This document shows positions 3,700 through 41,857 of a stretch of 64,000 nt of DNA, one piece after another. A model generated the notes under the pieces. The model searched no databases. It saw only the letters and a list, made by a program, of their open reading frames with translations, and was not told where the DNA came from. Origin of the DNA: a virus (Duplodnaviria; Heunggongvirae; Uroviricota; Caudoviricetes); the IMG/VR virus record IMGVR_UViG_3300026382_000001; one strand, 5' to 3'. Position 1 is the stretch's first letter. The number at the start of each line of letters is the position of its first letter. A program made the position numbers and the translations under genes.

Positions 3700-3722
3700 A
3701 ATAAATATAAAAAGGAAATACT

Positions 3723-15492: not shown

Positions 15493-15500
15493 GAAAAATT

Positions 15501-15908: not shown

Positions 15909-15917
15909 AGGATTATT

Positions 15918-16262: not shown

Positions 16263-16271
16263 AGGAGAAGT

Positions 16272-21393: not shown

Positions 21394-21399
21394 AAAAAA

Positions 21400-23420: not shown

Positions 23421-24163
23421 TGAAAAGTATTGCTATTATTTCTAGTAGTGGTGGTTTAGATTCAAGTACCTTAATTTATAAGGTACTGAATGAAACTAAT
23501 TGGGACGTTGTTCTAGTTAGTTTTAATTATGGTCAGGTTAATAAAGTGGAGCTTATGGCCCAAGAAAAGTTATATAGTATTTTAAAAGAAAGTAAATTTT
23601 CAAATAGAATACTTATGCGAGCGAAATTAAGTATTCCACTTTTTGATGATATTGGGTTAGTAAATATGCAAGGTATTGATGATGCAGATCATGAGTACTA
23701 TACTCCAAGCAGAAATTTATTATTTGGTACTACGGTAGCTAGTTTTGGTGAAGCTATTGCTACTAAGTACGGTTATGATAATGTATTTCTTGGTATGGGT
23801 TTACATAAACATACCGAAGAAGCTTATGGTGGGAAAGGTGAAGGAGAAGTTTCTCAGTATTGGGATATTACTCCAGAATTTGCCAAACGACTTCAAAAAG
23901 TTTTTGATCTTAATGATCAAAAACATATCGAAATTTATGCACCTTATATAAATTCTTATAAAAAGAATATTATTGAGGATGTTGTAAAATACAAGGTACC
24001 GTATAAAAATACTTGGACTTGTTATGAGCCACAAAAGGTATTGGATAATGGAAGAGATATCTATACACCATGTCTAAATTGTGAAGCTTGTATGGAGCGG
24101 GAAATCAATGCAAAAGGAATTATTGAAGATATTAATGATTATAAAATAATTTTAGAATCGTAA
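23420..24163 (+). CDS. queC: 7-cyano-7-deazaguanine synthase QueC
   Basis: PP-loop IAIISSSGGLDSS and a C-terminal Zn-binding CYEP...CLNCEAC cluster. 247 aa. Confidence 0.7.
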   Translation: MKSIAIISSSGGLDSSTLIYKVLNETNWDVVLVSFNYGQVNKVELMAQEKLYSILKESKFSNRILMRAKLSIPLFDDIGLVNMQGIDDADHEYYTPSRNLLFGTTVASFGEAIATKYGYDNVFLGMGLHKHTEEAYGGKGEGEVSQYWDITPEFAKRLQKVFDLNDQKHIEIYAPYINSYKKNIIEDVVKYKVPYKNTWTCYEPQKVLDNGRDIYTPCLNCEACMEREINAKGIIEDINDYKIILES

Positions 24164-24269
24164 ATAACTATCAATAGTTTAAGAACTGGTGGTGGTAGTT
24201 TAGTTATCTATATAGATAACTATTGTACTATTAATACACTCAACTATCAATAGTTAACTATTGATAGTT
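24164..24269 (+). repeat. compound palindromic element (AACTATCAATAGTT; TAGTTATCTATATAGATAACTA; perfect 28-bp AACTATCAATAGTTAACTATTGATAGTT)
   Basis: Read directly from the sequence. It sits between queC and the clpB-like gene. Confidence 0.8.
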
Positions 24270-24345
24270 GTTATTAAAATATGATGTGGAGGATGAAAAC
24301 CTCCTAAAAAAATCAATATTAAATAAAAAAAAGAAGGAATCGAAA

Positions 24346-27424: not shown

Positions 27425-28243
27425 ATGATGAGAGAAGTTATCAAACATAGAGGCGCTAAAGTAAAGTTAAGTACATCTGATATAGATGAAATAGTAGAAT
27501 TTCTTACGATTGGTGATGTGACATTTAAAGAATTGGCTAGTACTTATCAAGTACAGATACAATACATTAAAAATATCTTTAATGGTAAAGGTCGTTTTAG
27601 ATATCTTTTAGGAACAGAAAAATATTTTAAAATGCATGAGGCACAACGTAAAATAAAGGAAGAAAAATTGAAAAGAGCTCAACAAATGAATTATTCCAGT
27701 AGTAATCCTACGTCAAATAAAAACGGGAAAAAAACTTTACTTAGTATGTCTCAAGAAGAATTAGATATTCTTTATACAAGATTACATAACGAAAGAGCAA
27801 TTGATTTAATAACTGAATATGGTATTGGTCAATCTCAGTTAAGTAAATTTAAACACGATAAATTTAAATCTATTAAGGGTAATCTTTTAGTTGATGGTAT
27901 TGATGGTATTGATGGTATTGATAAAGAAGTTTCGGTAATGGAAATTACGGAAACTAATGAAGTTAAAGAGGAACTTCTAGATTTAGCTAGAAAAACAACA
28001 GCTGCTAAAAAAATTAGTATTCTTGAAGTACTTCGCAATCATTTGGATTGTGTTGGTAAATCAAGATTACATGATTTATTAATAAGCGAAGAGTATATTA
28101 AACATGCGGTACATAATCCATTTGTAAATAATATGCAAACTGGTTTATTAATTTATGAAGTACTTCATTTAATTACTAGTTATAGTACTTTTGAAATTGG
28201 TATGTTTCTCGAAGAGATTAAAGAGGCTAATTATGAAAGTTAA
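27425..28243 (+). CDS. hypothetical protein with an internal DGIDGIDGID repeat
   Basis: 272 aa. Contains (GATGGTATT)x3 at 27893-27919. Confidence 0.4.
   Translation: MMREVIKHRGAKVKLSTSDIDEIVEFLTIGDVTFKELASTYQVQIQYIKNIFNGKGRFRYLLGTEKYFKMHEAQRKIKEEKLKRAQQMNYSSSNPTSNKNGKKTLLSMSQEELDILYTRLHNERAIDLITEYGIGQSQLSKFKHDKFKSIKGNLLVDGIDGIDGIDKEVSVMEITETNEVKEELLDLARKTTAAKKISILEVLRNHLDCVGKSRLHDLLISEEYIKHAVHNPFVNNMQTGLLIYEVLHLITSYSTFEIGMFLEEIKEANYES
27893..27919 (+). repeat. (GATGGTATT)x3 microsatellite-like tandem repeat inside the CDS (encodes DGIDGIDGI)
   Basis: Read from the sequence. Confidence 0.8.
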
Positions 28244-29042
28244 TATTAATTATATATCTGATCTAAATTTAGATCAGATATCGTTTGATGGTAATATGGA
28301 GGAATATATTGAAAGTATTCTTCCAAATATCAAAGGAGATATTTTAATTATCGCTGGTAATCTAGGTTCGGATTTAAACAAAAATCTTTTATTTTTAAAA
28401 AAAATAAGTCCGTATTATCATAAAATATTTTATGTAACTGGACCAAAAGAAATGTATTTGAATGACGAACATTATTCATTTAATTCAAATTCCTTTGAAA
28501 AATTAAATACTTTAAAACGTATATTAAATAATTTTCCGGAATTTGAAAATATTGTGCTTTTAGATGGTTTTGATAAACAGCGAATAGTTTTAGAAGAATA
28601 TGATAATCTTAGTATTTCTGGACTAAGTATGTTTTGGGATTATTCTGGATTACCTTTAAATTTAACCCACCGGGAAATAAACGATCTTTATAAAGCTACC
28701 GTTAAAGATTATAAATTTATTAATTTTGGTACTGATCATCGTACTGAGAAATTAAATAAATTAAATCCATCTAAATTATTTAAAAATAATTTTAAAAGAC
28801 TTGATAAATTAGAACCGGTCGATATAATGGTTACATATTACTGTCCTCTTAATACGGAAGAATCTTTTCAATGTTTTGATGGAGAATACCATATAAAACG
28901 TTTACAGCCAAAAACGTGGATTTTTGGTGGAATAATGAAGTTTGAGGATACTTTTTATAATAATACCTTATTGACAAATGCTTTTAATCTTAAAAATAAA
29001 ATTAAAACTTTAACAATAAAAACCTCATCAAAGGATATTTAA
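28233..29042 (+). CDS. degenerate paralog of the calcineurin-like phosphoesterase at 32528 (catalytic motifs lost)
   Basis: Same N-terminal I.YISDL.LD architecture as the 32528 ORF, but GD has become GN (IIAGNLGSD) and GNHD has become GPKE. ATG at 28233 with RBS GAGG is preferred over 28191. Confidence 0.45.
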   Translation: MKVNINYISDLNLDQISFDGNMEEYIESILPNIKGDILIIAGNLGSDLNKNLLFLKKISPYYHKIFYVTGPKEMYLNDEHYSFNSNSFEKLNTLKRILNNFPEFENIVLLDGFDKQRIVLEEYDNLSISGLSMFWDYSGLPLNLTHREINDLYKATVKDYKFINFGTDHRTEKLNKLNPSKLFKNNFKRLDKLEPVDIMVTYYCPLNTEESFQCFDGEYHIKRLQPKTWIFGGIMKFEDTFYNNTLLTNAFNLKNKIKTLTIKTSSKDI

Positions 29043-29326
29043 TGAAATTGTTAACAAACCGAGGTGAATGGTTGATAGCGGTGATTATGAGTTTAATCAT
29101 AGTAGTCGCCTTTCAGAGTATTCAATTACAATATTTAAAAAAGTCGTATTTGAAAAATATCCAAATTTTGGCAGATAATCAAAAAACAATTATTAAAAAA
29201 GAAACCAAAATATTCGAATTGATTTCTAAAATTTTAACTTATCAAACCAAAATTATTTTAAAACATGAAAAAATTTTAGATTCGAAAGATAAAATAAAAA
29301 AGAAAAGGAGTAAGAATGAAAGATAA
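29042..29326 (+). CDS. N-terminally membrane-anchored small coiled-coil protein
   Basis: One TM segment (WLIAVIMSLIIVVAF) followed by a K/E-rich helix. Confidence 0.4.
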   Translation: MKLLTNRGEWLIAVIMSLIIVVAFQSIQLQYLKKSYLKNIQILADNQKTIIKKETKIFELISKILTYQTKIILKHEKILDSKDKIKKKRSKNER

Positions 29327-29984
29327 TTTAAATTCTTCTGGAGAATCACGTATGGAAATATTACGATTAAAGGAAGATATATTAAAATTAAAGAAAAAAA
29401 TTAATTTTTACAAATATGATCAATTAACTGGATTAAAAACTAGAAATGATTTTGTTTGGGATTTTAATGATTTGATTTTAAAAGATAAACCATTTATGGT
29501 ACATCTATGCGATATTAATAATTTAAAATCTATTAATACCAAATATGGATATGTTAATGGTGGGGATACTTTAATAAAAAAAATGGCCAAAAAATTAAAA
29601 ACGATTTTTGATCATAGTTTTATTTATCGTATTGGTGGTGATGAATTTGTGGTATTTGATTTTAATTTAAATGAATATAATGATGATAATAATGAATTAT
29701 CCGTTGTATCTAAAGTAATTGAACCGATTTCACACATGGATATTGGGACAGAATCCGAAATAGATATTAATAATATTCTTATGGAAATGGATAAAGATAT
29801 GTTAAAATTAAAAATTAATTTGGATCGCCGTGGAACCAGACAAATTATAAAAGTGCATCATGGTTTAGATATGTGTTTAAATATTGATGGGTATATTGAT
29901 GTAAACTTAAAATATAAAGCTGGTAAACTTAAATTAGAACATAATGGTGATGAATCAGTTATTTATTTAAAAGAAAAGGATTAG
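29316..29984 (+). CDS. GGDEF-domain protein (putative diguanylate/nucleotidyl cyclase) with an N-terminal coiled-coil
   Basis: ..LCDINNLKSINTKYGYVNGGD.. and an intact ..YRIGGDEFVVF.. signature. Confidence 0.55.
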   Translation: MKDNLNSSGESRMEILRLKEDILKLKKKINFYKYDQLTGLKTRNDFVWDFNDLILKDKPFMVHLCDINNLKSINTKYGYVNGGDTLIKKMAKKLKTIFDHSFIYRIGGDEFVVFDFNLNEYNDDNNELSVVSKVIEPISHMDIGTESEIDINNILMEMDKDMLKLKINLDRRGTRQIIKVHHGLDMCLNIDGYIDVNLKYKAGKLKLEHNGDESVIYLKEKD

Positions 29985-29986
29985 AA

Positions 29987-30274
29987 ATGACGTTTGGTAA
30001 AGTAGTAGAGTTAATGAAAATGGATAGTAGTATTAAAGTACAACGTAGTGGTTGGAATGGAAAAGGAATGTATCTTTTTTACGTTCGCCCTGAAACCATT
30101 ATAGTTACTCAAGGTCATCCTTTTAATCGAGTATTTATCGAAGGTACTGAAATTCAAATACAATCATATATTGCTATGAAAACTGCTCAGGATACTATTG
30201 TTCCTTGGTTAGCTTCGCAAACGGATATGTTAGCAGATGATTGGGAATTATTTGGAGGAGCGAAAAGTGAGTAA
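29987..30274 (+). CDS. DUF2829-like small protein (the family that contains the anti-Thoeris sponge Tad2)
   Basis: 95 aa with MTFGKVVELMK....RSGWNGKGMYLF........LADDWELF. The GWNGKG and C-terminal DWE pattern matches what I recall of DUF2829. Confidence 0.45.
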   Translation: MTFGKVVELMKMDSSIKVQRSGWNGKGMYLFYVRPETIIVTQGHPFNRVFIEGTEIQIQSYIAMKTAQDTIVPWLASQTDMLADDWELFGGAKSE

Positions 30275-30686
30275 TTTAAAATATCCGATTCTTAGAGAAC
30301 GTTGGATTAAACTTAGAAAAAATAAAGATAAATCCTCGGAAGATATTATTTTACAAAAGCTTCTTGGATTAATTATCGATAAAACTGCCAAGTTGGCTAA
30401 AGAAGATAAATCAGAGAATTTAACAAAGTATGTTGATAAAGCTATTAAAAGCGAATACAAACAACAGTTAGACTCGTTAAGTAAAGGGGTTAAATGTGAA
30501 ACGGAAATTAAACTTTTAGAAGATATGTTACCAAAAACATTATCCGAAGAAGAAACGGTTAATATTATTTTAGATATTTTAGCTAGAAATAATAAACCAA
30601 ATATGGGATTAGTGATGAAGGAATTAAGAACGATTCCAAATTTAGATATGAAACTAACGTCTAACTTAGTTAAAAAATTATTATAA
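30267..30686 (+). CDS. YqeY/GatB-C-terminal-domain-like protein
   Basis: ..MLPKTLSEEETVNIILDIL.....NMGLVMKEL......KLTSNLVKKLL resembles the YqeY consensus (YLPKQLSEEE..., ...LVKELL). A GTG start at 30267 with RBS GGAGGAG is proposed. Confidence 0.45.
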   Translation: MSNLKYPILRERWIKLRKNKDKSSEDIILQKLLGLIIDKTAKLAKEDKSENLTKYVDKAIKSEYKQQLDSLSKGVKCETEIKLLEDMLPKTLSEEETVNIILDILARNNKPNMGLVMKELRTIPNLDMKLTSNLVKKLL

Positions 30687-30696
30687 GGAAAGAATT

Positions 30697-31008
30697 ATGA
30701 AAAAAGTTATAAAGATATTTACAGGATTATTAATAATAGGTGCAAGTTTATTTGCGGATAGTTCGTCTGGTAAAAATAAATGGAATAATGGTTCAATAGA
30801 TATTGAAACAAGTTTAAATAATGTTTACATTTACGATAAAAAAAATTATTTATTAAAAAACCAAAACCAGTACGAAATGGAAGCAGGTTTACGAGATAGT
30901 ATATATAAAAAACCAAATTTATGTAAATTGGTTAATACTAAACCAGCTATTTTTGTATATATTTATTCAGATGGTGCATTAACAATTACAATAGATGGAT
31001 GTAAATAA
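30697..31008 (+). CDS. small secreted protein (signal peptide)
   Basis: MKKVIKIFTGLLIIGASLFADSS N-terminus. Confidence 0.4.
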   Translation: MKKVIKIFTGLLIIGASLFADSSSGKNKWNNGSIDIETSLNNVYIYDKKNYLLKNQNQYEMEAGLRDSIYKKPNLCKLVNTKPAIFVYIYSDGALTITIDGCK

Positions 31009-31322
31009 TGGAAATTACGATACAATGGTTTTGGTTAATTGGAGTGGTCGTTATGACAATCGAAGCTTTTTTAGCTTGGAAGTGGTTCAATACTGGCTTT
31101 TCAAAAAAATGGGGATATACTTTACTAGTAACTATTATACTAGTAATTATAACTGGAAGAATGGTTAAAATTGAGCAAATTACTAAACGTGATTTTAATA
31201 TTTTACAAACTCAAAATATAGAATCTCATAAAAAGTTACCACCTAAAGTAACGGACGATTCTTTTATCGAGAATGATAAAAATACCAAAAGTATTGATAT
31301 CAATTTTGTTAATGCTCATTAG
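31008..31322 (+). CDS. small membrane protein (2 TM)
   Basis: Two hydrophobic segments: WFWLIGVVVMTIEAFLAW and LLVTIILVIITG. Confidence 0.4.
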   Translation: MEITIQWFWLIGVVVMTIEAFLAWKWFNTGFSKKWGYTLLVTIILVIITGRMVKIEQITKRDFNILQTQNIESHKKLPPKVTDDSFIENDKNTKSIDINFVNAH

Positions 31323-31331
31323 GGATATTTA

Positions 31332-31559
31332 ATGAAGTATCTATACAAAACTTTTATAATTGGATTAATATTTATTGGATATGTATTTAACATATATTTT
31401 CTAACAGTTGATCCAAAAATAAGAGATTACCAATGGGTTAATAAAGTTGGGATAGTGATTATTCCACTTGGATCAGTTATGGGTTTAGTTTATGCACTTG
31501 ATAATATCAAATGTGTTTCATATTGTAAGAGTAAAAATATAAAAACAGAGGAAAAATAA
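31332..31559 (+). CDS. small membrane protein (2 TM)
   Basis: Two hydrophobic segments: FIIGLIFIGYVFNIYFL and IVIIPLGSVMGLVYAL. Confidence 0.4.
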   Translation: MKYLYKTFIIGLIFIGYVFNIYFLTVDPKIRDYQWVNKVGIVIIPLGSVMGLVYALDNIKCVSYCKSKNIKTEEK

Positions 31560-32444
31560 ATGAGAAAAGTTTTAAAAAAATTAATGTTCGTAGTGAGTTT
31601 AGGTTTAGCTATGATAGTAATGACTGGTTGTAATGAACAAGTACCAGCTGGTTATGGTGGAAAGATTCTAGGTAAAAATGGGTGGCAACCAGAGATTTAC
31701 CCACCTTCTAAAGTTTGGGTAGATACTACTTTTACTTTTACTCCAGAAAAATTATTTCTTTATCAAACAACTACACAAAAATTTGTACAACCAATCAAAA
31801 TTCTTTTAAAAGATAAGTTGACACTTAATGCCGAAATAGTATTCCGTGGTAGAATAACTACAAATAAAAAAATCATCAATGGTTTATTTAATGATATGCC
31901 AATGAATGACAATATCGTTCAAACCTCAGAAGTATATAATACTTATGGTAAAATGATTGTACTTAATACGGCTCGAGAAGTAATTTCTAAATATAATGTC
32001 GACGAAGTTAATAAAAATTATGCTCGTATTACTATTGAATTATATGAAGCTATTAAGCCCAAGTTAGAAGGTTTACCTATTCAAATTTCAGATGTGACAT
32101 TGGGAAATATTCAATATCCTAAAATAGTAACGGAAGCTATTGAAAAAGCTAAACAACGTAGAATGGCTATCGAACAGGAAAAAGCTCAAGTACAAATCGA
32201 ATTGGAAAAAGCTAAAGGTAGAGAACAGGTTGCTAAAGCGGAATATCGTATTAAAATGTTAGAAGCAAAACGAATACGCGATTATAATAAAATGATTGAG
32301 CAAGGGGTTACACCAAATCTTCTTAAACTTCGTAAGTTAGAAGTACAAGAAAAAATGGTGGAAGCTATTAAAGAAAATAAAAACGTGGTTTATATGCCTA
32401 TGGATATGATGAATGGTAGCACAAACATGAGAATTATTAAATAG
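31560..32444 (+). CDS. SPFH/band-7 (prohibitin/HflK-like) lipoprotein
   Basis: Lipobox MIVMTGC after the signal peptide. The C-terminal helical region (AIEKAKQRRMAIEQEKAQVQIELEKAKGREQVAKAEYRI) is typical of SPFH proteins. Confidence 0.5.
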   Translation: MRKVLKKLMFVVSLGLAMIVMTGCNEQVPAGYGGKILGKNGWQPEIYPPSKVWVDTTFTFTPEKLFLYQTTTQKFVQPIKILLKDKLTLNAEIVFRGRITTNKKIINGLFNDMPMNDNIVQTSEVYNTYGKMIVLNTAREVISKYNVDEVNKNYARITIELYEAIKPKLEGLPIQISDVTLGNIQYPKIVTEAIEKAKQRRMAIEQEKAQVQIELEKAKGREQVAKAEYRIKMLEAKRIRDYNKMIEQGVTPNLLKLRKLEVQEKMVEAIKENKNVVYMPMDMMNGSTNMRIIK

Positions 32445-32466
32445 CTGGTTGTCGTGAACTAGTTTA

Positions 32467-32500
32467 GAGATAACTATTAATAGTTATCTCTTTTTTATTT
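32467..32500 (+). terminator. perfect 24-bp palindrome GAGATAACTATTAATAGTTATCTC followed by TTTTTTATTT (AGTTATC/GATAACT family member acting as a terminator-like element)
   Basis: A hairpin plus U-tract lies 22 nt after the SPFH gene stop. Confidence 0.5.
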
Positions 32501-32527
32501 ATATATTAAATATAAAAAAGGATAAAT

Positions 32528-33406
32528 ATGAAAGAATTAAGAATAGATTATATAAGTGATTTGCATTTAGATTTTTGGATGAAAGAAGTTAATCCTCAAT
32601 CACCAAAGTTTCAAAAACAATTACAAGAATTTATAAATATGATTCAACCAAAACCAGGTAAAGTTTTAATTCTTGCTGGAGACCAAGGGCATTATTTCTC
32701 TCAGGATTCAGCATTACTTCTGGAACTTAAGAAATACTATGAAAATATTTTAATAGTTCCAGGTAATCATGATATGTATTTAATTAGTAACAAACAGGAA
32801 AAAAAATATAACTGGAATTCTAAAAATAGACTTTTAGAAATGAAAAGATTTTGTAATGAACATGATGGTTTATATTTTATGGATGGTGATGTAATATCTA
32901 TAGATGGTTTTAAAATTGGTGGTATTGGTATGTGGCATGATTGGTCTTATGGAAAAGAACTTGGTTATTCGGATACCGAAATGGAAGAGATTTGGAAACG
33001 GGTTATGAATGATGCTAATTTAATATTTCAAGATTCGAAAAAGAATTATAATATTTCTTTCGGTTATGGGGGAAAAGAAAAAATAGTTCATTTCAAACCT
33101 ATGGAATTATATAAAGAGTACCGAGAAAAATTAGATAAGATGGAACCATGCCATTTAATGTTTAGTCATTATGGACCAATTATTCCAGATAATATTGAGG
33201 AAGATTATAAAGAAGATGAAGTAACTTCATTTTATTATTTTGATGGAGCTTCGGATATTTTTAGATTAAAACCACAGTACTGGATACATGGTCATACACA
33301 TTCAGTATATGAAAGTAACCGTTCTGGTACTAAAGTTATTACCAACCCACTTGGATATCCAAGTGAAAATAGTTATGTAACTATTAAAAGTATTTATTTA
33401 AAATAA
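32528..33406 (+). CDS. calcineurin-like metallophosphoesterase
   Basis: DLHLD, LAGDQGH, PGNHDMY and HGHTH motifs. 292 aa. Confidence 0.6.
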   Translation: MKELRIDYISDLHLDFWMKEVNPQSPKFQKQLQEFINMIQPKPGKVLILAGDQGHYFSQDSALLLELKKYYENILIVPGNHDMYLISNKQEKKYNWNSKNRLLEMKRFCNEHDGLYFMDGDVISIDGFKIGGIGMWHDWSYGKELGYSDTEMEEIWKRVMNDANLIFQDSKKNYNISFGYGGKEKIVHFKPMELYKEYREKLDKMEPCHLMFSHYGPIIPDNIEEDYKEDEVTSFYYFDGASDIFRLKPQYWIHGHTHSVYESNRSGTKVITNPLGYPSENSYVTIKSIYLK

Positions 33407-33416
33407 AGGATTAAAA

Positions 33417-33614
33417 TTGAAAAAAGAATATTTTTATTTTTACTGCGTAGCAATATTTGAAGATGAAAAACAATTAATACTGGATGGTACGATTACCACC
33501 AATAGTCCTATAAAATCATCAGAAGATTTTAAAGAGTTATCTATCCGATTAAAAAATAATTATAAAACCAAAAATTTAGTAATTATGAATTTAAATTTAT
33601 TATTTGAGGATTAA
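33417..33614 (+). CDS. small hypothetical protein (TTG start)
   Basis: 65-aa ORF. Confidence 0.3.
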   Translation: MKKEYFYFYCVAIFEDEKQLILDGTITTNSPIKSSEDFKELSIRLKNNYKTKNLVIMNLNLLFED

Positions 33615-33618
33615 AAAA

Positions 33619-34167
33619 ATGAAGAATAAAATAAGAGAAGTTATTTACGAAGAGATAATTAAAGGACAACATCACGTTTTAACAAAATTGATTTTAAATA
33701 ATAAATTATCCCATTATGAATATTATGTGGGTATTCCTAAAGAACATCCATATTATAGAAAGAGTGATAATATGAAATCTAGATGGTTTAAAGAACCGGA
33801 TAAAAGTCAAGAATATTTATACAAAATAAGTAAATCAATCTCTTTTAATAATACACAAAATCTTAGAAAAGTAGTTAGGAGCTTGAAGGAACCTTTTAGA
33901 ATTAAAAATATAAATGATTTTAATTTTGATAGTGTTGTTGCTTTGGAACATGCTTGGTTATCTTTTAGTGGAAACTTCTACGAGTTTCTAAAAGAGGATT
34001 ATTGTTATTATGGTGGTGGCATGTATGTACCAAGTTTTGGAGATGATTCTTGTAAAAAATCTTCAGAAATAGCTTTAAAATTACTTGGGAATCATTTTTT
34101 AAAGGTACATGATATTAGCCCGAAATATTCCGATTTTAAAATAAACTTTGAAGGAAGGGAAGGATAG
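33619..34167 (+). CDS. hypothetical protein
   Basis: ATG at 33619 with RBS GAGGA. The track start at 33604 is also possible. Confidence 0.4.
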   Translation: MKNKIREVIYEEIIKGQHHVLTKLILNNKLSHYEYYVGIPKEHPYYRKSDNMKSRWFKEPDKSQEYLYKISKSISFNNTQNLRKVVRSLKEPFRIKNINDFNFDSVVALEHAWLSFSGNFYEFLKEDYCYYGGGMYVPSFGDDSCKKSSEIALKLLGNHFLKVHDISPKYSDFKINFEGREG

Positions 34168-34170
34168 TAA

Positions 34171-34578
34171 TTGAAATTATACGAATTAAAAATACATAAA
34201 CGTGATGATTATTTTTATAACCATGATACATTTAGTGTTAAACTTATTAACGTTATTGAAACTATTAAATGTGAATACACTTATAAAGAAAATAAAAAAA
34301 TAATTAGAAATAATACTTTTTTAAAATATAAAATAAAAAATGGTAACGATATAGAAACTATTGATGTTACGGATGGAACTTATTTTAAAACGTTAGACGA
34401 ACTTCTAGAATATTTTAAAAAAAAATATTTTAAAGTTCATTCGGATAAATATTATGATTATTATATGAATATTGATAATAAAGATTCTATCACGTGTGTA
34501 TCAAATTTATCGGCTAAGGGATTAGGATTAACCGAAGGTTATATAGATTTACAAAAAAAATTAAAGGAGAATAAATGA
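34171..34578 (+). CDS. hypothetical protein (TTG start)
   Basis: 135-aa ORF. Confidence 0.35.
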   Translation: MKLYELKIHKRDDYFYNHDTFSVKLINVIETIKCEYTYKENKKIIRNNTFLKYKIKNGNDIETIDVTDGTYFKTLDELLEYFKKKYFKVHSDKYYDYYMNIDNKDSITCVSNLSAKGLGLTEGYIDLQKKLKENK

Positions 34579-35543
34579 AAAAAGTAAAAAGTTTAAATGA
34601 ACTTATAAATGGAGAATATTATTGGATGCATAGTAAAATGATTTTTGATAATGGTTTTAGAAGTTCACAAATGTTAATACACCGTTATCGAAATCTTGAA
34701 GATAGTAGAGCTTATTTTGGGGACCGTATTTGGGCATTTGATGGTAATAACCAAGCTATGGAAAAATATGATATTTATGGACCAGTTCCAAAACCATTTA
34801 GAGGTGATTTAAGCAATCCAAATAATTCACAATCTTCGGAATTTGAAAAAGTATTTGGAAATAATGAAGAATTGGATTTAATGATTGCTCAAATTAGAGA
34901 TAGTTTTACAGAAGAAATTACAAAATATATTCCGGAGAGTAGCGCTTATAGTTCACCTGAATGTGTTTTATTTGCTCTTTATAAAAGTATTGAAGATAAG
35001 TTATCAACTTCAAAAGAGATAACTAAAGGTACTGATAGTTTACTATCAATAGTTGACGTCTCAAAAGAAAATAAATTTGAATTTTTTTGGGGAGGAATAT
35101 TTTCACAATGGGCTAAATATAATTTTACCGATGAATATGGAGTAATCTATAATTGTGCTGAACAGTACATGATGGCTCAAAAAGCAAAAGTTTTTCAAGA
35201 TAAGGAAACGTATGATAAAATTATGGCTAGTACTAATCCAAAAGAACAGAAAGCTCTTGGTAGAAAAATAAAAAATTTTAATGATGAAACTTGGGATAAA
35301 TATAAAATAGATGTTGTTCGAACTGGAACGTATTTAAAATTTTTGCAACATCCAGAATTAAAAGAATATCTTTTAAGTACTGGTAATAAGGTAATAGTAG
35401 AAGCTTCTCCGTATGATAAAGTTTGGGGAATTGGTCTCAGTGAAACAGATCCATTAAGATTAGATCCAAAAAATTGGAAAGGGCAAAATCTGCTTGGTTT
35501 TATTATAATGCAGGTAAGGGAACAATTAAAGGAGATTAAATGA
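34575..35543 (+). CDS. NADAR (YbiA/DUF1768)-domain protein with an N-terminal extension of about 150 aa
   Basis: The C-terminal half has FWGG.FSQW....F......YNCAEQYMMAQKA..F.D......IM.S..P.EQK.LGR.I.NF....W.........G....F.QHPEL...LL.TG...IVEASP.D..WGIGL. Confidence 0.55.
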   Translation: MKKVKSLNELINGEYYWMHSKMIFDNGFRSSQMLIHRYRNLEDSRAYFGDRIWAFDGNNQAMEKYDIYGPVPKPFRGDLSNPNNSQSSEFEKVFGNNEELDLMIAQIRDSFTEEITKYIPESSAYSSPECVLFALYKSIEDKLSTSKEITKGTDSLLSIVDVSKENKFEFFWGGIFSQWAKYNFTDEYGVIYNCAEQYMMAQKAKVFQDKETYDKIMASTNPKEQKALGRKIKNFNDETWDKYKIDVVRTGTYLKFLQHPELKEYLLSTGNKVIVEASPYDKVWGIGLSETDPLRLDPKNWKGQNLLGFIIMQVREQLKEIK

Positions 35544-36316
35544 GATTTATGCAATTAGGAAACGGTGGTGGATTAGATCCAACAGCTACGAATAGTAGTT
35601 TTTTAGTCCAGGTAAAAGATAATGAATATCTATTGTTTGATTGTGGTTTTAATATTATGCAAAGACTTATAGAAATTGAAAATAATCCTTCAAATGAATT
35701 TAATATTGGAATGATTAAATATGTATATGTTTCACATATACATGATGACCATGTCGGGAATTTAGAAACATTAATGTTTTGGAATTATTTTAAAAATAAT
35801 TCCAGTATTACTTTTCTTTATGCAAATGATGAAACGGAAGAATACTTTAAAAATAAATTATTTCCAAAATTATACAATGGTGGTAAAATTGATACAAATT
35901 CTGTTATTAACTCAACAATGATAAAATTATATCATGGTTCTACACAAGGTTATAATATAAAAAAAGATATCAAACATATACAAAGTACTAATGTTTCTAT
36001 ATTGGCATTATATAAAACATTTCATGGTGATTGTCAATCAAATGGTTTGGTTATTATTAATAATATAACTAATACTGCTTTGGTTATAAGTGGAGATACA
36101 AAGGCATCACTGCACTTAGAAGAAGAGATATTATATAAATTAAAAGATTGTAAATCTTCTATAATTTATCATGATTATAGCGATTGGGATTGTCCTAGTA
36201 AAAATGTTCATGCTTGCAAAACAGATTTTGAATGTGAGTATTCTGAAGATTTCCAAAATCAAATTATAAAATATCATGATAATGGCGATTTTATAACCGA
36301 TTGGCAAAATTGGTAA
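35540..36316 (+). CDS. metallo-beta-lactamase-fold hydrolase
   Basis: HxHxDH motif (VSHIHDDHVGN), plus a downstream HGD and a C-terminal H. Confidence 0.5.
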   Translation: MRFMQLGNGGGLDPTATNSSFLVQVKDNEYLLFDCGFNIMQRLIEIENNPSNEFNIGMIKYVYVSHIHDDHVGNLETLMFWNYFKNNSSITFLYANDETEEYFKNKLFPKLYNGGKIDTNSVINSTMIKLYHGSTQGYNIKKDIKHIQSTNVSILALYKTFHGDCQSNGLVIINNITNTALVISGDTKASLHLEEEILYKLKDCKSSIIYHDYSDWDCPSKNVHACKTDFECEYSEDFQNQIIKYHDNGDFITDWQNW

Positions 36317-36341
36317 AAGGATCTTCGGATCCTTTTTTTTA
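36317..36341 (+). terminator. rho-independent terminator AAAGGATC-TTCG-GATCCTTT plus T-run (C(UUCG)G tetraloop)
   Basis: A perfect 8-bp stem, UUCG loop and U9 tract lie immediately after the stop at 36316. Confidence 0.75.
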
Positions 36342-36367
36342 TAATTAAAAATAAATAAAGGAAATTT

Positions 36368-38425
36368 ATGTCAGAAATATTACCAAAATTAGATAATATA
36401 CCAGATTTTGAAAATAAATTAATTCAATTAAATAATCAATTTCATATCAGTTCAAAGATTAAAGAAAATTTAGAAAATGAAACTGGAACATTTTTAGAAA
36501 AAAATACTCTTATTGAAGATGAATTAAAATTATTAAATGATACTAAAATGCTTTTAGAGACTTTAAAAATTCATAAACTTAAAGAGAAAAAAGATTTTAT
36601 TCTTAATATAGTAAATACTGCTTTAGTGGATATCTTCCAAGATAATATTAAAATAGCGATCGAACCTCAAGAAGGTAAAGGTAAAGTTAATACAAGTGGA
36701 ACTCAAAAATTTGATATAATTTTTTATCAAAATGATATTGAATTAGCTAGAAATGAAGAATTGCTTATTTCTAATGGTGGTGGTATAATGCAAGTTGTAT
36801 CGATGCTTTTTAAATTATTAATAGGTTTTATTTATTCTAAAAATACTTTTTATATGTTTGATGAAAGTTTTAGTCAGTTAAGTGCAGATAACAGAATTCG
36901 TCTTAGTAAATTTTTACAAATGTTTTGTGAACAATATAACTTTACTATAGTTGTTGTTTCTCAAGTTCTTGATTTAGATGAGTACGCTGATATCATTTAT
37001 AGCGTGAATGCTAAATATAATAGTAATGGGGTTCGAGAATTAGTACTAGAGGATACTACTGTTAAAGAAGGTATTCTTGAAAGAAATATTGGTGAAGGAC
37101 AAGAAGGATTATGGGGATTAAAAATAAAAAATTTCCAAAGTATTAAAGAAATTGATTTAATTTTTAAAGGTTATACAATTATACGTGGTCCAAATAATTC
37201 TGGTAAAAGTGCTATACTTAGAGCAGTTTCATCTATTTTGTATAATTCATTTAATGTAAAAAAATATCCTCGTAAAGCTGGTGGTTTAGATACTAAAGGT
37301 AATCCAAGTAAGAAAGTTTTAAATACTGAAATAATTTTAGAAAAAACTTATTTTAAAGATCCAACAATAGAAGATGAAAAAAATGAAATAATTCAAAAAC
37401 GAGTAGGATTGCGTTATAAAAGTTCTAAAGTATCCTTTGTTATAGAAGGAGAAGAATATTACGGAAAGAATTTAGCCGCTGAAAAACTTATGGAAAAAAT
37501 TGAAGAACTTGGATTCAAGTACATTAATTTAAAAGAATTTTATAAGAACTTTAAAGGTAATTTAAAAGATCAAACAGAAAGAATTGCTAGTACTACTCAG
37601 TACGACGGATTATTTTTAGTAGGTTCAAAAGGTAATGAAACAGAAAAAATTTTTAACTTTTTATTCAATACTGAAAATATTACTAAAGCTATTTTAAAAG
37701 TAAAAGAAGATATGATGCTTTTATCAAAGAATCATGAAACTAATCAAGAACGTATTCTTGAAAATACTTCTAAAATAGAAGAAGTCAATAATGAAATTAG
37801 ATATTATTTAAAATTATATTATTTAACAATTATTGAAAATTTATCTTTATTCGATACAAAAGAATTAAAAAATTATATAACCAATCTTGATTTTGAAATC
37901 AATACTAGAAATCAGATTATAAATTTAATTTCTAAAAATCTTAATTTATTTAATGATTCTTTTTTACAAGTTAAGCAAACGGTTCAATATACAAATAATT
38001 TAAAAGATAATTTTAATGAATTAAGTACTAGAACGGATTACTTAAATAAGCAAATTTTGAAATTAGAAGAATTAAAGATATTAATAGATGAAACTTCTGG
38101 AAAATTAGAAATGGTTAATCAAGGACTTCTTTTAAAGAAAAATATAGAAACCTTAAAATTCAATTCAAATATGAAAGTAAGCGAGATCGAAGTAATTGAT
38201 TTTAGTTTACGAATTAGATATCAAATTGTAGAACGATTGGAAAAGATTTTTAAATTAAATAATTATCTTGATCAATATTCAAAGGATTATTCTAAAAAGA
38301 ATAATCTTGACTTATATTTGGAACCAGTGATTAATCAATTACAAGTTCTAAAATTAAAACACCAATCTTTATTTACGGAATGTAATAAATGTTCAGGTAA
38401 AGGTTTTATATTAAAAGGAAAATAA
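36368..38425 (+). CDS. Rad50/SbcC-like SMC-family ATPase with domain order apparently permuted (T4 gp46 analog)
   Basis: Residues ~130-200 carry a signature-like LISNGGG, a Walker B/D-loop FYMFDESFSQLSADN and IVVVSQ. A canonical Rad50 N-terminus (LKIKNFQSIKEIDLIF..GYTIIRGPNNSGKSAILRAV, Walker A) starts at about residue 250. The rest is coiled-coil. Confidence 0.45.
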   Translation: MSEILPKLDNIPDFENKLIQLNNQFHISSKIKENLENETGTFLEKNTLIEDELKLLNDTKMLLETLKIHKLKEKKDFILNIVNTALVDIFQDNIKIAIEPQEGKGKVNTSGTQKFDIIFYQNDIELARNEELLISNGGGIMQVVSMLFKLLIGFIYSKNTFYMFDESFSQLSADNRIRLSKFLQMFCEQYNFTIVVVSQVLDLDEYADIIYSVNAKYNSNGVRELVLEDTTVKEGILERNIGEGQEGLWGLKIKNFQSIKEIDLIFKGYTIIRGPNNSGKSAILRAVSSILYNSFNVKKYPRKAGGLDTKGNPSKKVLNTEIILEKTYFKDPTIEDEKNEIIQKRVGLRYKSSKVSFVIEGEEYYGKNLAAEKLMEKIEELGFKYINLKEFYKNFKGNLKDQTERIASTTQYDGLFLVGSKGNETEKIFNFLFNTENITKAILKVKEDMMLLSKNHETNQERILENTSKIEEVNNEIRYYLKLYYLTIIENLSLFDTKELKNYITNLDFEINTRNQIINLISKNLNLFNDSFLQVKQTVQYTNNLKDNFNELSTRTDYLNKQILKLEELKILIDETSGKLEMVNQGLLLKKNIETLKFNSNMKVSEIEVIDFSLRIRYQIVERLEKIFKLNNYLDQYSKDYSKKNNLDLYLEPVINQLQVLKLKHQSLFTECNKCSGKGFILKGK

Positions 38426-39178
38426 ATGGATTATTTAAATTATTTAAAAACTACTCCAATAGATAATCAACAAGTTATATCCAGTACACGTGGATTACCA
38501 AAATCAGTTTCTAAACAACCAGAAAATAAAATACCGAATCAAACACATTCCAAAGATTCTATAAATCAAATTAATAAAAGTATTTCTAGTATAGGTAATA
38601 ATATTATGGGTGTTCAATTGCCTAGTGATTTAGGGGGAGATATTTTAAAAAATTCCACCCTTAATGATATATTGGATTATTCTGATTATCAAGAATTACT
38701 AATGGATATAAAAAAATTTATTACTAAACAATATGGTGATATTTGGTATGCTAAAGAATTAGAGTCTTTAAATTTATATAGTTATTTATTAAGTGAAGTA
38801 ACTGGTATCATAAATAACATATTTCCTAGTAATAAAACTTTTGACATTTCTAACTACAGAGAGGATATTATTTTTGAAAAATTGGCTAATTTATATTTTG
38901 GAATATTTCTTATCTTTTTACATGAAAGTGATGAGATGAGTATTTACAGTCTTTTAAATAGTTATATTAAACTTAGCGAAGATCCAAATTTTCAAAGAGA
39001 TAAAGGTATTATTTTTAATAATGCTTGGGATACATTGGTTCTTCCAATTAGCATTAAACAACATCATTTAGTACTTATAAAATTACTTGACTTTTGGTTT
39101 GGGATAGGCGGGACATGGGAAATTCTTAAAAAAAGAATTAAAATTAAGTTGTTAAAGGAAAGTGAAACTTTAAAATAA
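38426..39178 (+). CDS. hypothetical protein
   Basis: 250-aa ORF. Confidence 0.4.
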   Translation: MDYLNYLKTTPIDNQQVISSTRGLPKSVSKQPENKIPNQTHSKDSINQINKSISSIGNNIMGVQLPSDLGGDILKNSTLNDILDYSDYQELLMDIKKFITKQYGDIWYAKELESLNLYSYLLSEVTGIINNIFPSNKTFDISNYREDIIFEKLANLYFGIFLIFLHESDEMSIYSLLNSYIKLSEDPNFQRDKGIIFNNAWDTLVLPISIKQHHLVLIKLLDFWFGIGGTWEILKKRIKIKLLKESETLK

Positions 39179-39260
39179 CTTTAATAACTTAACAACGAAA
39201 TATAGATATCATTTATAATAAAAAATTAAATTAAAATAAAATAAACATTAAGGAATTAAT

Positions 39261-39761
39261 ATGGTAAAAGAATTAATAAAAGAAAATCAAAAAGAATTAG
39301 TATCGTTAGAAATTTTAACTTTCAGTGAGGATGTAACTGGATATTCAGAAAAACAATTAAAAGAAAAATATCATAGTTTTAAAGAAACTTTTACTTTAAT
39401 AGATGATCTTTCTCAACCTTATGTTATTAGAACGGTCGTTGGAGAACATAAAGACATTAGATCATTAGAACCAGAAATGATTCCAGAATGTGATAGATTC
39501 GAAGTATCGGAAAGTGTTCAAAGTATTTTAAAAGATAATGAACTTCCAGTATATAAAAGTGATTTTGACCAAAATAATATCGCTAATATTGCTAATCTTA
39601 AAGAACAACAGCTAAATGCAGCTATTAAACAAGAAATGTTTAATGGTCTTAAGGCTATGGAAGATGGAAAAATTAATCCGGATATAATTAAAGAAGCTAA
39701 AGGATTATCTGATAAAGTTATTATCGATGTTCAACCTGAAGACGAGAAAACGGAAAAATAA
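39261..39761 (+). CDS. hypothetical acidic protein
   Basis: 166-aa ORF. Confidence 0.4.
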   Translation: MVKELIKENQKELVSLEILTFSEDVTGYSEKQLKEKYHSFKETFTLIDDLSQPYVIRTVVGEHKDIRSLEPEMIPECDRFEVSESVQSILKDNELPVYKSDFDQNNIANIANLKEQQLNAAIKQEMFNGLKAMEDGKINPDIIKEAKGLSDKVIIDVQPEDEKTEK

Positions 39762-39769
39762 GGATTCTC

Positions 39770-41293
39770 ATGAAAATGGTTAGAAGTAAGCTCGATGATA
39801 AACGAGAAAAAAAGATAAAAATTGATTATAATGTAGTCGAGCAAAAAATAGAAGAATTTTTAATTAAATATAATATTGATGGGGAAATGGAAATATTTAT
39901 CCAAAATAAAATCAATAATGAATTAAATATTGATAAAGCTTATTTAAATATTATTAATAAAAAGGGTACTAGTCAACCACAAGTACAAGTAGAATTTTTT
40001 ACAGATATAAAACGATACTTGACTAGCCTTATTAATGAAAAAATTCTTTTAGAAATCGAATATGTTAAAGCTAATGAGTCCGAAGAAATGGCAGATCAAA
40101 TAAAAGAAATATTAAATAATACATTAGAGGAAATTCCTTTAACTATGTTTGATAAAGGAATTAGTAGACCTACTTTAACAGCGTATCATTATTTTTTAAA
40201 AGTACTTCATAAAAATACAGAAGCTTATATGGAAAAGAATGGTATTAAAAAAATTCGTAATGTTAAAAATCCAAATGAAATATTCTCAAATGAAATTTAT
40301 AATATAGTTGGTAAAGATAATGAGTTAATGAGATTTACCTTAACTCTTAAAAACCTTATTGAGAACTGGTTAATTAAGTACAGTACTAAATCTCAAATTG
40401 GAGAATTTTATTATAATATTTTAATGATTACTCCAGAAACTATTATAGAAAAAATTTTAAAATATTTGGTAATGGTTGCAATTCGTAATAAGAATCCTAT
40501 GACTCTTAGAGCCATTTTTAGCTCGTATATAACACTTATACATAAGAACCTATTCTCTTATTACAGTACGAATCTTAGTAACGTTAAGGTTGGTTATTTT
40601 AAACAACTTGAAGAATTATTTACGGAAAACTTTGATTTAATTTTCGATGATAATGAAAAAAGAGATTCTAAAAAAACTATAACTGATATTATGGTTAAAA
40701 CATATCTTATGAAAAATAAAAGATATTTAAAAGATGATTTTGAATTCTTAAATAATGAGTACTTTCAAAGTTTCTTTGAAACCAACTACTACGATGCTAT
40801 TACCTCATATAATTATAAAACCGAATTCTCATTGTTGGATCACATGTATTTTTATGAAACTGCTTATAAATATACTAAGAACTTTGGAGATGATGGTAAT
40901 GCTTTTGGTATTAATGAAAATAAACTTCCAGTGAGTTTAGAAAATACATCTGTGATTAATAGTTCATTTTTAAAGAAAAATACAAAAAAGAAAAATATTT
41001 TGTATATTAAAGAAAAACTAACTAAAAAATTATTTAGATATTTCTATAATATATTTGGGGATAAAGAATCAGTTTTAGAAATTCTTACCAAAATGGCGGA
41101 GGATATATTAACCAAGTTAAATTTTAATCTTTATTTAGATGAAAATTTAAATAAGTTGGATTTAACCTTTAATGAGTACTTAGATAATATTGATTTCTTT
41201 ATTGATAAAATAGAAAAAATTATACTAAGTGATGGTATAGAATCTCCAAATTCCGAAACCATATCCGATTTAATACCACAAAAGGTTATATAA
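39770..41293 (+). CDS. hypothetical protein
   Basis: 507-aa ORF. Confidence 0.4.
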   Translation: MKMVRSKLDDKREKKIKIDYNVVEQKIEEFLIKYNIDGEMEIFIQNKINNELNIDKAYLNIINKKGTSQPQVQVEFFTDIKRYLTSLINEKILLEIEYVKANESEEMADQIKEILNNTLEEIPLTMFDKGISRPTLTAYHYFLKVLHKNTEAYMEKNGIKKIRNVKNPNEIFSNEIYNIVGKDNELMRFTLTLKNLIENWLIKYSTKSQIGEFYYNILMITPETIIEKILKYLVMVAIRNKNPMTLRAIFSSYITLIHKNLFSYYSTNLSNVKVGYFKQLEELFTENFDLIFDDNEKRDSKKTITDIMVKTYLMKNKRYLKDDFEFLNNEYFQSFFETNYYDAITSYNYKTEFSLLDHMYFYETAYKYTKNFGDDGNAFGINENKLPVSLENTSVINSSFLKKNTKKKNILYIKEKLTKKLFRYFYNIFGDKESVLEILTKMAEDILTKLNFNLYLDENLNKLDLTFNEYLDNIDFFIDKIEKIILSDGIESPNSETISDLIPQKVI

Positions 41294-41302
41294 AGGAAAA
41301 AT

Positions 41303-41857
41303 ATGAAACCAGAAACAAAACAAAAATTCTTAAATGAAAAAATAGGTTATGTTGATGTGTTATTCGATTCAGAGTCTAATAGATTAATGAATCAAATAAT
41401 TAAAGATCTTGGATTAAAGAAAGATTTTAATGATGATTTTCATTGTACTATTTCATATTCTAAAAAAGATTTTAATTTTATATTACCTGGTGAAAAGTTA
41501 GATAATATAAAAATTAAAGATAATAAAGTACATGTTGATATAAACGAAAATTGTACTATTAAAGGTTTTGGTAATTTTAAAACAAATGAAGGTTTAAATT
41601 TACATATTGAATTAGATTGTCCTTTTTGTAAATCTGAATTTAAAAGATGTGTTAAAGCCGGAGCAGTATATGATTATCCAGAATATATACCACATATTAC
41701 TCTAATGTATAATTGTTCTTTACCAGGAGAAGACAAAGGTATACCGAAAGAGTATTTTAAAAATACTCTTAATAAGTACATTGGGAAAAAAATAAAGATA
41801 ATTAAAGAACGTAAACAAAAACTTAATAAAAATTGGGTTAAAGAATCCAAAAAATAA
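41303..41857 (+). CDS. 2H-phosphoesterase superfamily protein (LigT/cyclic phosphodiesterase-like)
   Basis: Two H-x-T/S-x motifs about 85 aa apart: FHCTISY and PHITLMY. Confidence 0.45.
   Translation: MKPETKQKFLNEKIGYVDVLFDSESNRLMNQIIKDLGLKKDFNDDFHCTISYSKKDFNFILPGEKLDNIKIKDNKVHVDINENCTIKGFGNFKTNEGLNLHIELDCPFCKSEFKRCVKAGAVYDYPEYIPHITLMYNCSLPGEDKGIPKEYFKNTLNKYIGKKIKIIKERKQKLNKNWVKESKK

Follow-up and report, generated by a model that had tools for sequence, protein, structure and literature searches.

Region 27425-41857 of the DNA analysed here, a 64,000-nucleotide stretch of a tailed phage (Caudoviricetes; IMG/VR record IMGVR_UViG_3300026382_000001) that we call the window, encodes members of the Tad2, Acb1, Apyc1-like and NADAR families. 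Our results make it probable, with appreciable room for doubt, that these are four single-gene inhibitors of nucleotide-based immunity which sit within the conserved backbone of a jumbo-phage non-structural block. The case is built on family membership by sequence or fold, on intact key residues and on the gain, loss and relocation of Tad2, GGDEF and NADAR genes among relatives, and from the characterised members of each family we infer the biochemical activities and the anti-defence roles in vivo. The genes that carry the argument are the following.

29987-30274, + strand: candidate Tad2-type sponge of 95 amino acids (aa), short-insertion form (Pfam Tad2-like/DUF2829, PF11195).
34575-35543, + strand: NADAR ADP-ribosyl-glycohydrolase domain protein (Pfam NADAR, PF08719).
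35540-36316, + strand: Apyc1-like class II phosphodiesterase of the metallo-beta-lactamase (MBL) fold, 258 aa (Pfam Lactamase_B, E 1.9e-8).
41303-41857, + strand: Acb1-type 2H phosphodiesterase, 184 aa (Pfam Acb1).

If the properties of the families carry over, the 95-aa Tad2 protein would form a tetramer that sequesters the Thoeris signal glycocyclic ADP-ribose (gcADPR), so that ThsA stays inactive, and Acb1 would cut the cyclic di- and trinucleotides of CBASS 3' of adenosine, without metal, by means of its HxT/HxT tetrad. The Apyc1-like protein would hydrolyse cyclic mononucleotides (the cyclic CMP and cyclic UMP of Pycsar, and probably cyclic AMP (cAMP) and cyclic GMP (cGMP)) at a di-zinc HxHxDH site, and the NADAR protein would strip ADP-ribose from guanine of phage DNA that has been modified by DarT1-type transferases. 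Inhibitors of Thoeris, CBASS, Pycsar and DarT1-type defences would then have been inserted, lost and moved within the non-structural block. As an earlier note on this DNA had described, all open reading frames (ORFs) of the 14 kb lie on the plus strand, and Pfam and PHROG searches find each domain that it named where it had placed it. Judged by Pfam's curated cut-offs, the GGDEF, Tad2-like, SPFH, Metallophos, NADAR, MBL and Acb1 assignments all pass one.

The Tad2-like protein matches PF11195 with E 1.7e-23 (83.4 bits against a cut-off of 25), and its PDB matches are Tad2, ModTad2, HgmTad2/AcrIIA7, SPO1 gp34.65 and SptTad2 (E ~1e-15 to 7e-11). HgmTad2 contacts gcADPR through W21/N22/G23, W87, L88, S90, T92 and D93 (10.1101/2023.11.15.567273), and in a HMMER alignment W23-N24-G25 (GWNG) and W74-L-A-S-Q-T-D80 (WLASQTD) of the window protein are identical to these contacts. 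The DUF2829 fold by sequence, a length of ~90 aa and the gcADPR-contact motifs are thus shared with HgmTad2 and SPO1 gp34.65. The insertion between strands beta2 and beta5, at ~26 aa, is near the 24 aa of SPO1 and unlike the 35-41 aa of HgmTad2 and SptTad2, which bind cGG and cGAMP, the cGG-binding forms having 41 aa. Among the cyclic-dinucleotide contacts of HgmTad2 only R31 is kept (R34 here), the equivalents of N85, S47 and F70 not being conserved. Because the insertion is of the short SPO1 type, we predict that the protein sponges gcADPR alone and not cyclic dinucleotides. The proposal in the earlier note that Tad2 acts on Thoeris signals is therefore upheld for the family and for the gcADPR-contact residues, while sponging of cyclic dinucleotides is not predicted.

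The 2H protein matches Pfam Acb1 (PF23474) with E 1.6e-20 and 73.7 bits against a cut-off of 27, while the generic 2',5'-RNA-ligase model gives it 16 bits, and it aligns with the Acb1 structure 7T26 in the PDB (E 4.8e-6). Its tblastn matches are gene 57B of T4-like phages. T4 gene 57B is the experimentally defined Acb1, whose HxT/HxT tetrad consists of H44, T46, H113 and T115 (PMC9117128), and the corresponding tetrad of the window protein, H47-C-T49 and H131-I-T133, is invariant in four lineages. With T4 57B and the Acb1 of Erwinia phage FBB1 (7T26) it shares the Pfam family, the tetrad and a YDYPxYxPHITL segment; it differs in being only ~30% identical to the Acb1 of cultured phages and in its length of 184 aa with a lysine-rich C-terminal tail, compared to the 144-aa FBB1 chain. 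A tRNA-ligase partner, which the earlier note had named as the outcome that would count against its proposal, is thus not what Pfam and tblastn point to.

For the MBL protein we relied on profiles and on fold. A profile built from 41 sequences of the family matches the Apyc1 structure 7T28 over its full length with E 6.3e-19, followed by ELAC2 (4e-10) and RNase Z (3.5e-8), and the precomputed Pfam listing of the collection assigns the Apyc1 family PF23023 to the protein and to all 66 homologues. The AlphaFold2 (AF2) model (predicted local distance difference test (pLDDT) score 92.6) has Apyc1 structures as its top four Foldseek matches (E 8.5e-15 to 3.4e-13). Residues H66/H68/D70/H71 and E76 correspond to Apyc1 H64/H66/D68/H69 and E74, and a conserved tyrosine (KLYNGG) lies one position off Apyc1 Y112 in the alignment. 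Compared to the Apyc1 proteins of Bacillus phage SBSphiJ/Bsp38 and of Paenibacillus (7T28, 7U2R, 7U2S), the window protein has the same size class, the HxHxDH motif and the E74-equivalent glutamate; it is 18-21% identical to them, with template modelling (TM) scores of ~0.63-0.71. The comparison covers size, sequence, overall fold and the metal site, whereas cyclic-mononucleotide activity in Apyc1 is decided by the nucleotide-binding loop (PMC11370490). Homologues with 44-55% identity occur among small ORFs of unknown function in unrelated large phage-like contigs, a distribution more easily reconciled with a mobile accessory gene than with a housekeeping RNase. We call the protein Apyc1-like rather than a proven Apyc1; an RNase Z-like protein, the other outcome that the earlier note had set against its proposal, is further from it both by profile and by fold.

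The NADAR protein matches PF08719 with E 5.6e-53 (180 bits) over residues 174-319, in a domain that spans ~165-320. It aligns with PnNADAR in the PDB (8BAU, E 2.3e-18) and with YbiA, and its structural model matches 8BAU in Foldseek with E 2.3e-10 and a target TM of 0.75. E196, K203 and E276 align with the catalytic E43, K50 and E125 of PnNADAR. The last-strand residue is a glutamate (VEAS), as in YbiA and PnNADAR; neither the histidine of T4 gp30.3-type AdfN nor the aspartate of the DarT1-linked BC4488 type is present in that strand. All NADAR subfamilies tested, YbiA included, remove ADP-ribose from guanine in vitro (PMC11125620), and phage NADARs outside the T4 type have been found experimentally to counter DarTG1 (PMC11825919). 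The fold, the Glu/Lys/Glu residues, phage origin and the lack of a linked DarT toxin are features in common with AdfN (T4 gp30.3, Bas32 and Bas60; PMC11825919) and PnNADAR, and the glutamate sets the protein apart from the His-type T4 AdfN. Common bacterial NADARs that stand alone share 50-59% identity with the domain. A further difference from AdfN and PnNADAR is an N-terminal extension of 170 aa, which is confined to this phage clade and for which no fold could be assigned, AF2 confidence being low. The first 74 residues of the extension recur with 73-74% identity at L008 8240-8566 and L009 3298-3519, beyond which the sequences diverge; L008 and L009 are phage-like contigs of the metagenome that also yielded relative L002, are otherwise unrelated and carry these stretches at their ends. 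The 74 residues may be a separable N-terminal module.

How these genes are placed becomes clear from their neighbours, which are listed here together with the terminator-like hairpins.

27425-28243, + strand: 272-aa protein, the first gene after a 240-bp gap; backbone.
28233-29042, + strand: dead paralogue of the phosphoesterase at 32528-33406 (30% identity, E 1e-30).
29042-29326, + strand: 94-aa membrane/coiled-coil ORF, 58-65% conserved in close relatives.
29316-29984, + strand: small protein assigned as a GGDEF diguanylate cyclase (Pfam GGDEF, E 7.1e-13).
30237-30686, + strand: YqeY/GatB-C-like protein (Pfam YqeY 25.9 bits, cut-off 27; PHROG 1460, E 6e-14).
30697-32444, + strand: membrane module, consisting of a signal-peptide protein and two small transmembrane proteins (30697-31559) followed by SPFH.
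31560-32444, + strand: SPFH/Band-7 lipoprotein (Band_7, E 1.8e-17; PHROG 200 'lipoprotein', E 4e-38).
32466-32491: terminator-like hairpin that ends the membrane module.
32528-33406, + strand: active-looking calcineurin-like metallophosphoesterase (Pfam Metallophos, E 4.1e-14; PHROG 1649, E 1e-39).
33417-34578, + strand: three ORFs of 65, 187 and 135 aa, 43-71% conserved.
36315-36336: terminator-like hairpin after the MBL gene.
36368-38425, + strand: Rad50/SMC-like ABC ATPase, 685 aa; backbone, 72-78% conserved.
38426-41293, + strand: three proteins of 250, 166 and 507 aa, with identities of 39-48%, 88-90% and 93-96%, respectively.

We compared four roughly equidistant lineages with a common gene order, namely the window phage, contigs L001/L004/L014, contigs L002/L003/L015 (which cover only the active phosphoesterase onward) and L016; a fifth, more distant lineage (L021/L022 and L023, with a ClpB 78% identical) was used to infer the ancestral state. 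The backbone runs from ClpB through a 78-aa ORF, the 272-aa ORF, the dead phosphoesterase, YqeY, the small membrane proteins, SPFH and the active phosphoesterase to the 187-aa and 135-aa ORFs, and the dead phosphoesterase, YqeY, SPFH and the active phosphoesterase are retained even in the distant relative. Further downstream, synteny of the MBL, ATPase, 166-aa, 507-aa and Acb1 genes extends to every relative for which this part was recovered, three in number. The 94-aa ORF, the GGDEF gene and Tad2 form a cassette that separates the dead phosphoesterase from YqeY; L021 and L023 lack it, and there YqeY begins 10 bp after the dead phosphoesterase. L001 has a Tad2 pseudogene at ~5600-5821 (MTFGKAIDLMKLDPSIKF*REG*NGKGLYIFYVR) with two in-frame stops, one of them within GWNG, and behind it YqeY is deleted except for a 35-bp remnant of its start. 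In L021 (7055-7444) Tad2 is fused to an N-terminal double-CxxC, zinc-ribbon-like segment in a gene within which the contig ends; this fusion stands directly after the homologue of the ORF at 34171, at approximately the position of NADAR in the window phage. Identities across the region range from 39-48% (250-aa ORF) to 93-96% (507-aa ORF), and GGDEF, MBL and Tad2 diverge faster (53-69% identity) than adjacent genes (84-96%).

The counter-defence genes occupy, or adjoin, variable slots within a conserved backbone. The slots of Tad2, GGDEF and NADAR vary among relatives, and the block is thus not the invariant one that the earlier note had said would undo its proposal of an anti-defence island. 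Of that proposal the four counter-defence families and the variable slots survive, and a single discrete, variable island does not: the terminator-like hairpins (at 32466, 36315 and 43115) mark off three units, the 14 kb include backbone that is conserved in the distant relative, and the ATPase and the 507-aa protein are kept in three or four close lineages. A scan of this AT-rich region for sigma-70 promoters performed no better than on shuffled sequence. The GGDEF gene, both phosphoesterases, YqeY and SPFH travel with the inhibitor genes; for none of these five did we find a demonstrated or family-level link to anti-defence, and for the backbone the term 'anti-defence island' overstates the case.

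Several results weigh against reading the four genes as inhibitors. No close lineage in which the stretch is visible (3 or 4 of 4) lacks Acb1, NADAR, MBL or either phosphoesterase, a retention that could equally reflect a core function, and about half of the 26 ORFs have no family assignment. As a single sequence the MBL protein reaches only 19.4 bits against Pfam Apyc1 PF23023, whose cut-off is 50, and it lies far under the cut-offs of the NCBIfam models, both for the cyclic-nucleotide phosphodiesterase NF041851 (32 bits compared to 400) and for RNase Z; the Foldseek margin of Apyc1 over YhfI and RNase Z is just about three orders of magnitude, with a TM of ~0.68. The NADAR domain is of the Glu type and also passes the NCBIfam model TIGR02464, 'riboflavin intermediates N-glycosidase', with 164 bits, and activity of a NADAR in vitro is no guarantee of protection in vivo, which is specific (PMC11125620). 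The suggestion in the earlier note that NADAR counters DarT accordingly keeps its footing in the family and the catalytic residues and loses some in the subtype and in this second match.

The GGDEF protein of the cassette bears on a different view of the region. It scores 40.6 bits against TIGR00254 (cut-off 37.4), and its PDB matches are exclusively diguanylate cyclases. A coiled-coil N-terminus is followed by a complete GGDEF domain and a clade-specific C-terminal tail. The GGDEF active site, the metal-binding Asp and the guanine-specifying Asn/Asp are all present, and D66, N74, D84 and R105-IGGDEF are invariant among phage homologues of just 53-58% overall identity. There is no RxxD I-site five residues upstream of the active site, the preceding sequence being TIFDHSFIYRIGGDEF. 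From these features the protein is probably a constitutive synthase of cyclic di-GMP (c-di-GMP). An mCpol/Cas10-like cyclase was considered and rejected, given the canonical GGDEF motif and the matches to diguanylate cyclases only, and a role for Tad2 as a sponge of the cyclase's own c-di-GMP was rejected as unlikely, its insertion domain being of the short type. Outside the clade we found no recurrent GGDEF-Tad2 pairing, other small GGDEF proteins being bacterial, or phage-like without an adjoining Tad2. Small coiled-coil proteins with only a GGDEF domain (163-178 aa) are encoded on other phage-like contigs (L018 2327-2863 and L019 454-945), one gene adjoining a terminase and the other an HD-domain protein, and minimal diguanylate cyclases may recur among phages.

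Such a cyclase could belong to a takeover of second messengers, in which c-di-GMP is raised while the MBL, 2H and metallophosphoesterase proteins remove cAMP, cGMP and other messengers, so that motility, surface or metabolism are reprogrammed, for example for superinfection exclusion, with the SPFH module acting at the envelope. The invariance of the GGDEF catalytic residues, a coiled coil available for dimerisation and the similar GGDEF-only proteins on other phage-like contigs are in line with this view, as is the finding that Apyc1 homologues, which are mostly bacterial housekeeping genes, also cleave cAMP and cGMP (PMC11370490). T4 Acb1 spares c-di-GMP (PMC9117128) and the short insertion of Tad2 argues against c-di-GMP binding; the product of the cyclase would therefore survive the phage's own enzymes. 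However, neither Tad2 nor NADAR is known to take part in general signalling, we recognised no effector or receptor for c-di-GMP in the region, and L021 and L023 retain the backbone but not GGDEF. We think a takeover of this kind unlikely as the explanation of the region, and it would in any case be compatible with an anti-defence role of the four inhibitor candidates.

Another possibility is that there is no functional unit, and that four independent single genes have come by chance to share 12 kb of a long same-strand non-structural run. Simulation gave a chance of ~0.017, uncorrected, for four genes of anti-defence families within 17 consecutive genes of the ~90 in the window, a statistic that is suggestive but weak because it is based on the 64-kb window alone of a genome of at least 281 kb. 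The genes are spread over the three terminator-delimited units with highly conserved, unrelated genes in between, and approximately 66% of known anti-defence genes stand alone (PMC11370490). On the other hand, gain, loss and relocation concentrate in this stretch, and co-location is a recognised property of anti-defence genes, which in roughly a third of phage genomes, that of T4 among them, lie together within 10 kb (PMC11370490). We rate a purely fortuitous assembly as quite unlikely; it concerns the word 'island' only, and not the identities of the genes.

A third view is that of a housekeeping block for nucleotides and RNA, conserved for replication, in which the MBL protein is RNase Z/BN-like, the 2H protein heals RNA ends with 2',3'-cyclic phosphates, NADAR is a YbiA-like N-glycosidase that clears reactive intermediates derived from riboflavin or NAD, and the phosphoesterases process DNA or RNA ends. 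This would account for the TIGR02464 match of NADAR and for the synteny of the majority of these genes in all close relatives. Names and secondary matches also lean this way: several MBL homologues are labelled 'ribonuclease BN' by the Joint Genome Institute (JGI), PHROG 755 names the 2H family 'RNA ligase', RNase Z and ELAC are still significant in profile and fold searches with the MBL protein, and a weak Swiss-army-knife HAD RNA-repair match occurs elsewhere in the window (5306-5791). Against it, the 2H protein scores far higher for Acb1 than for 2',5'-RNA ligase and its counterparts in cultured phages are of the T4 57B type, and no RNA ligase or kinase adjoins its gene; no tRNA genes were found in the window. 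In the profile search the E-value of Apyc1 is ~11 orders of magnitude below that of RNase Z, the four best fold matches are all Apyc1, and at 258 aa the MBL protein has the short length of Apyc1 and YhfI and not that of RNase Z. The tested NADAR subfamilies, YbiA among them, do hydrolyse ADP-ribosyl-guanine in vitro (PMC11125620). A housekeeping block is in our judgement decidedly unlikely, and four inhibitors of nucleotide-based immunity within a backbone remain the reading that we prefer.

The two phosphoesterases of the backbone form a contrasting pair. In the active one the five metal-binding motifs (DxH, GD, GNH[DE], H and GHxH) are intact; it is 72-85% conserved across relatives and has homologues in phage G, T4-like rhizobiophages and other jumbo phages. 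Its paralogue, for which Pfam and PHROG searches returned no match, has lost all five motifs (DxH to DLN, GD to GN, GNHD to GPKE, H to Y and GHxH to GGIM). The earlier note was right to call one phosphoesterase degenerate: this is a paralogue of the active enzyme in which every metal ligand is replaced, and on its sequence it is related to the calcineurin-like class by descent but is not an enzyme of that class. With 74-78% conservation in close relatives, the dead form is a maintained pseudo-enzyme; it also occurs in the distant L021 and L023, and it is possibly a ligand binder. A search of 1.8 billion representatives returned relatives of the dead paralogue most of which retain all five motifs. 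A small motif-less clade comprises the window protein, P0211, P0212 and P0215; homologues as little as 42-44% identical are dead as well, identities in the clade being 42-78% overall.

That the cassette of the 94-aa ORF, GGDEF and Tad2 forms a functional module with the dead phosphoesterase, in which the phage's own c-di-GMP would swamp or mislead the cyclic-dinucleotide sensing of the host, including Panoptes-type guards, which are triggered when a decoy pool of nucleotides is drained by phage sponges, or would shut off surface receptors, while the dead phosphoesterase would be a nucleotide-binding sponge of a new class, we regard as highly improbable.

Among the other genes of the region, the 272-aa protein has no match in Pfam, PHROG or PADLOC. 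Its orthologues are those of L016 (50%), L021 (46%) and L001 (491 aa, duplicated). The window ORF contains a GIDGIDGID repeat, and the L001 orthologue (2351-3826) has an internal duplication and DEIVKFLxIGE tandem repeats; the protein is therefore expanding by repeats. YqeY is a backbone gene, present in L016, L021 and L023 and lost in L001. The SPFH module has homologues in jumbo Pseudomonas phages and in Vibrio phages; it is found in the distant L021 (75% identical) and is absent from L001 and L016, a pattern that reflects loss in these two and not insertion in the window phage. The 65-, 187- and 135-aa ORFs have no family match in Pfam or PHROG, and the 65-aa and 135-aa ORFs are each missing from some relatives. 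The 250-, 166- and 507-aa proteins returned no match in Pfam, PHROG or PADLOC; the first is fast-evolving, and the last (39770-41293) is the most conserved gene of the region and yet has no homologue in the PDB or in cultured phages either.

In the 685-aa ATPase the head lobes are permuted relative to Rad50. The C-lobe of T. maritima Rad50, with signature and Walker B, corresponds to residues 138-205 and the N-lobe, with Walker A, to residues 251-301, after which ~200 aa of coiled coil end in CNKCSGKG, a C-terminal CxxC. PHROGs divide the protein into two families, as though its halves were separate genes elsewhere, and a separate pair of a 703-aa protein and an SbcD-like protein lies at 19282-22437. 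PADLOC found only generic Walker-A matches for the ATPase and a weak phosphoesterase match in the region, and so gives no support for a defence system carried by the phage.

The window has a G+C content of 26%, with plus-strand genes to ~45 kb and minus-strand genes after that, including giant ORFs of 1,428 and 2,433 aa. By PHROG and Pfam it carries the large-phage markers of T4-type topoisomerase II subunits and DNA polymerase, and further genes for thymidylate synthase, an SbcD-like nuclease, a ClpB-like ATPase and the 7-deazaguanine pathway; family searches of the other window ORFs tested turned up no additional anti-defence family. The DNA polymerase and topoisomerase II genes (8216-11540 and 13516-18562) are split or flanked by three HNH homing-endonuclease genes.

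8216-9340: HNH homing endonuclease.
10650-11540: HNH homing endonuclease.
16272-17177: HNH homing endonuclease.

The topoisomerase II is only ~33% identical to that of any cultured phage, T4-like phages included. A GGDEF protein of identical sequence is found on a 281-kb metagenomic contig, and the window phage is therefore an uncultivated jumbo phage; near-unchanged copies of it occur in three further assemblies. A megablast search of 50,697 phage records returned no match to the 14 kb, tblastn of the 507-aa protein against cultured phages none either, and tblastn of the 685-aa ATPase against them a single short, marginal ATPase match that identified no relative. Scans of IMG/VR with three anchors gave only two close contigs, and scans with the phosphoesterase alignment five distant phages with only the phosphoesterase gene in common. 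The ClpB/Hsp104-like double-AAA+ disaggregase (884 aa, 24268-26922) is 91-93% identical in close relatives and 78% in the distant one; in a pattern-limited scan of bacterial genomes it has ~40% matches over many phyla, and the nominal best, Campylobacter at ~41%, is a weak hint of the host. Genes for queuosine precursors (7-deazaguanine) are dispersed at 431-1033, 2921-3673, 12354-12785 and 23420-24163 and comprise QueD/PTPS, GTP cyclohydrolase I, a QueC-like gene and the putative pathway member DUF6884, which suggests DNA base modification as an extra anti-restriction strategy.

Our analysis extends the Tad2, Acb1, Apyc1 and NADAR/AdfN families into a jumbo-phage lineage without cultured relatives, and it suggests pressure on a low-G+C host from Thoeris, CBASS, Pycsar and DarT1-like systems alike. 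The separation of backbone and slots provides candidates for guilt by association in the diguanylate cyclase, the dead and active phosphoesterases and the small slot ORFs; were the cassette and the dead phosphoesterase a module after all, the latter would represent a new class of sponge. The cluster fits the known picture of anti-defence islands and on its own leaves current concepts unchanged: what is new is the jumbo-phage lineage, whereas the type of anti-defence cluster is already known.

Compared to known systems, the region resembles the 'counter-nucleotide and NAD+-centred systems' of jumbo phages, in which 2H, NADAR and calcineurin-like phosphodiesterase domains have been predicted to degrade defence signals (Iyer et al. 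2021; PMC7824862), and these three domains recur here; their account does not include this lineage, the cassette of Tad2 and GGDEF or the dead phosphoesterase paralogue. With the anti-defence islands of T4, lambda and the BASEL phages and those of the AntiDefenseFinder survey (PMC11370490) the region has in common that several candidate inhibitors lie in ~10 kb on one strand, that small unknown ORFs are interspersed and that the content varies among relatives. Unlike in those islands, the candidate inhibitors here stand within a backbone that is kept in a distant relative, are divided over three units and belong to a lineage with no cultured relative.

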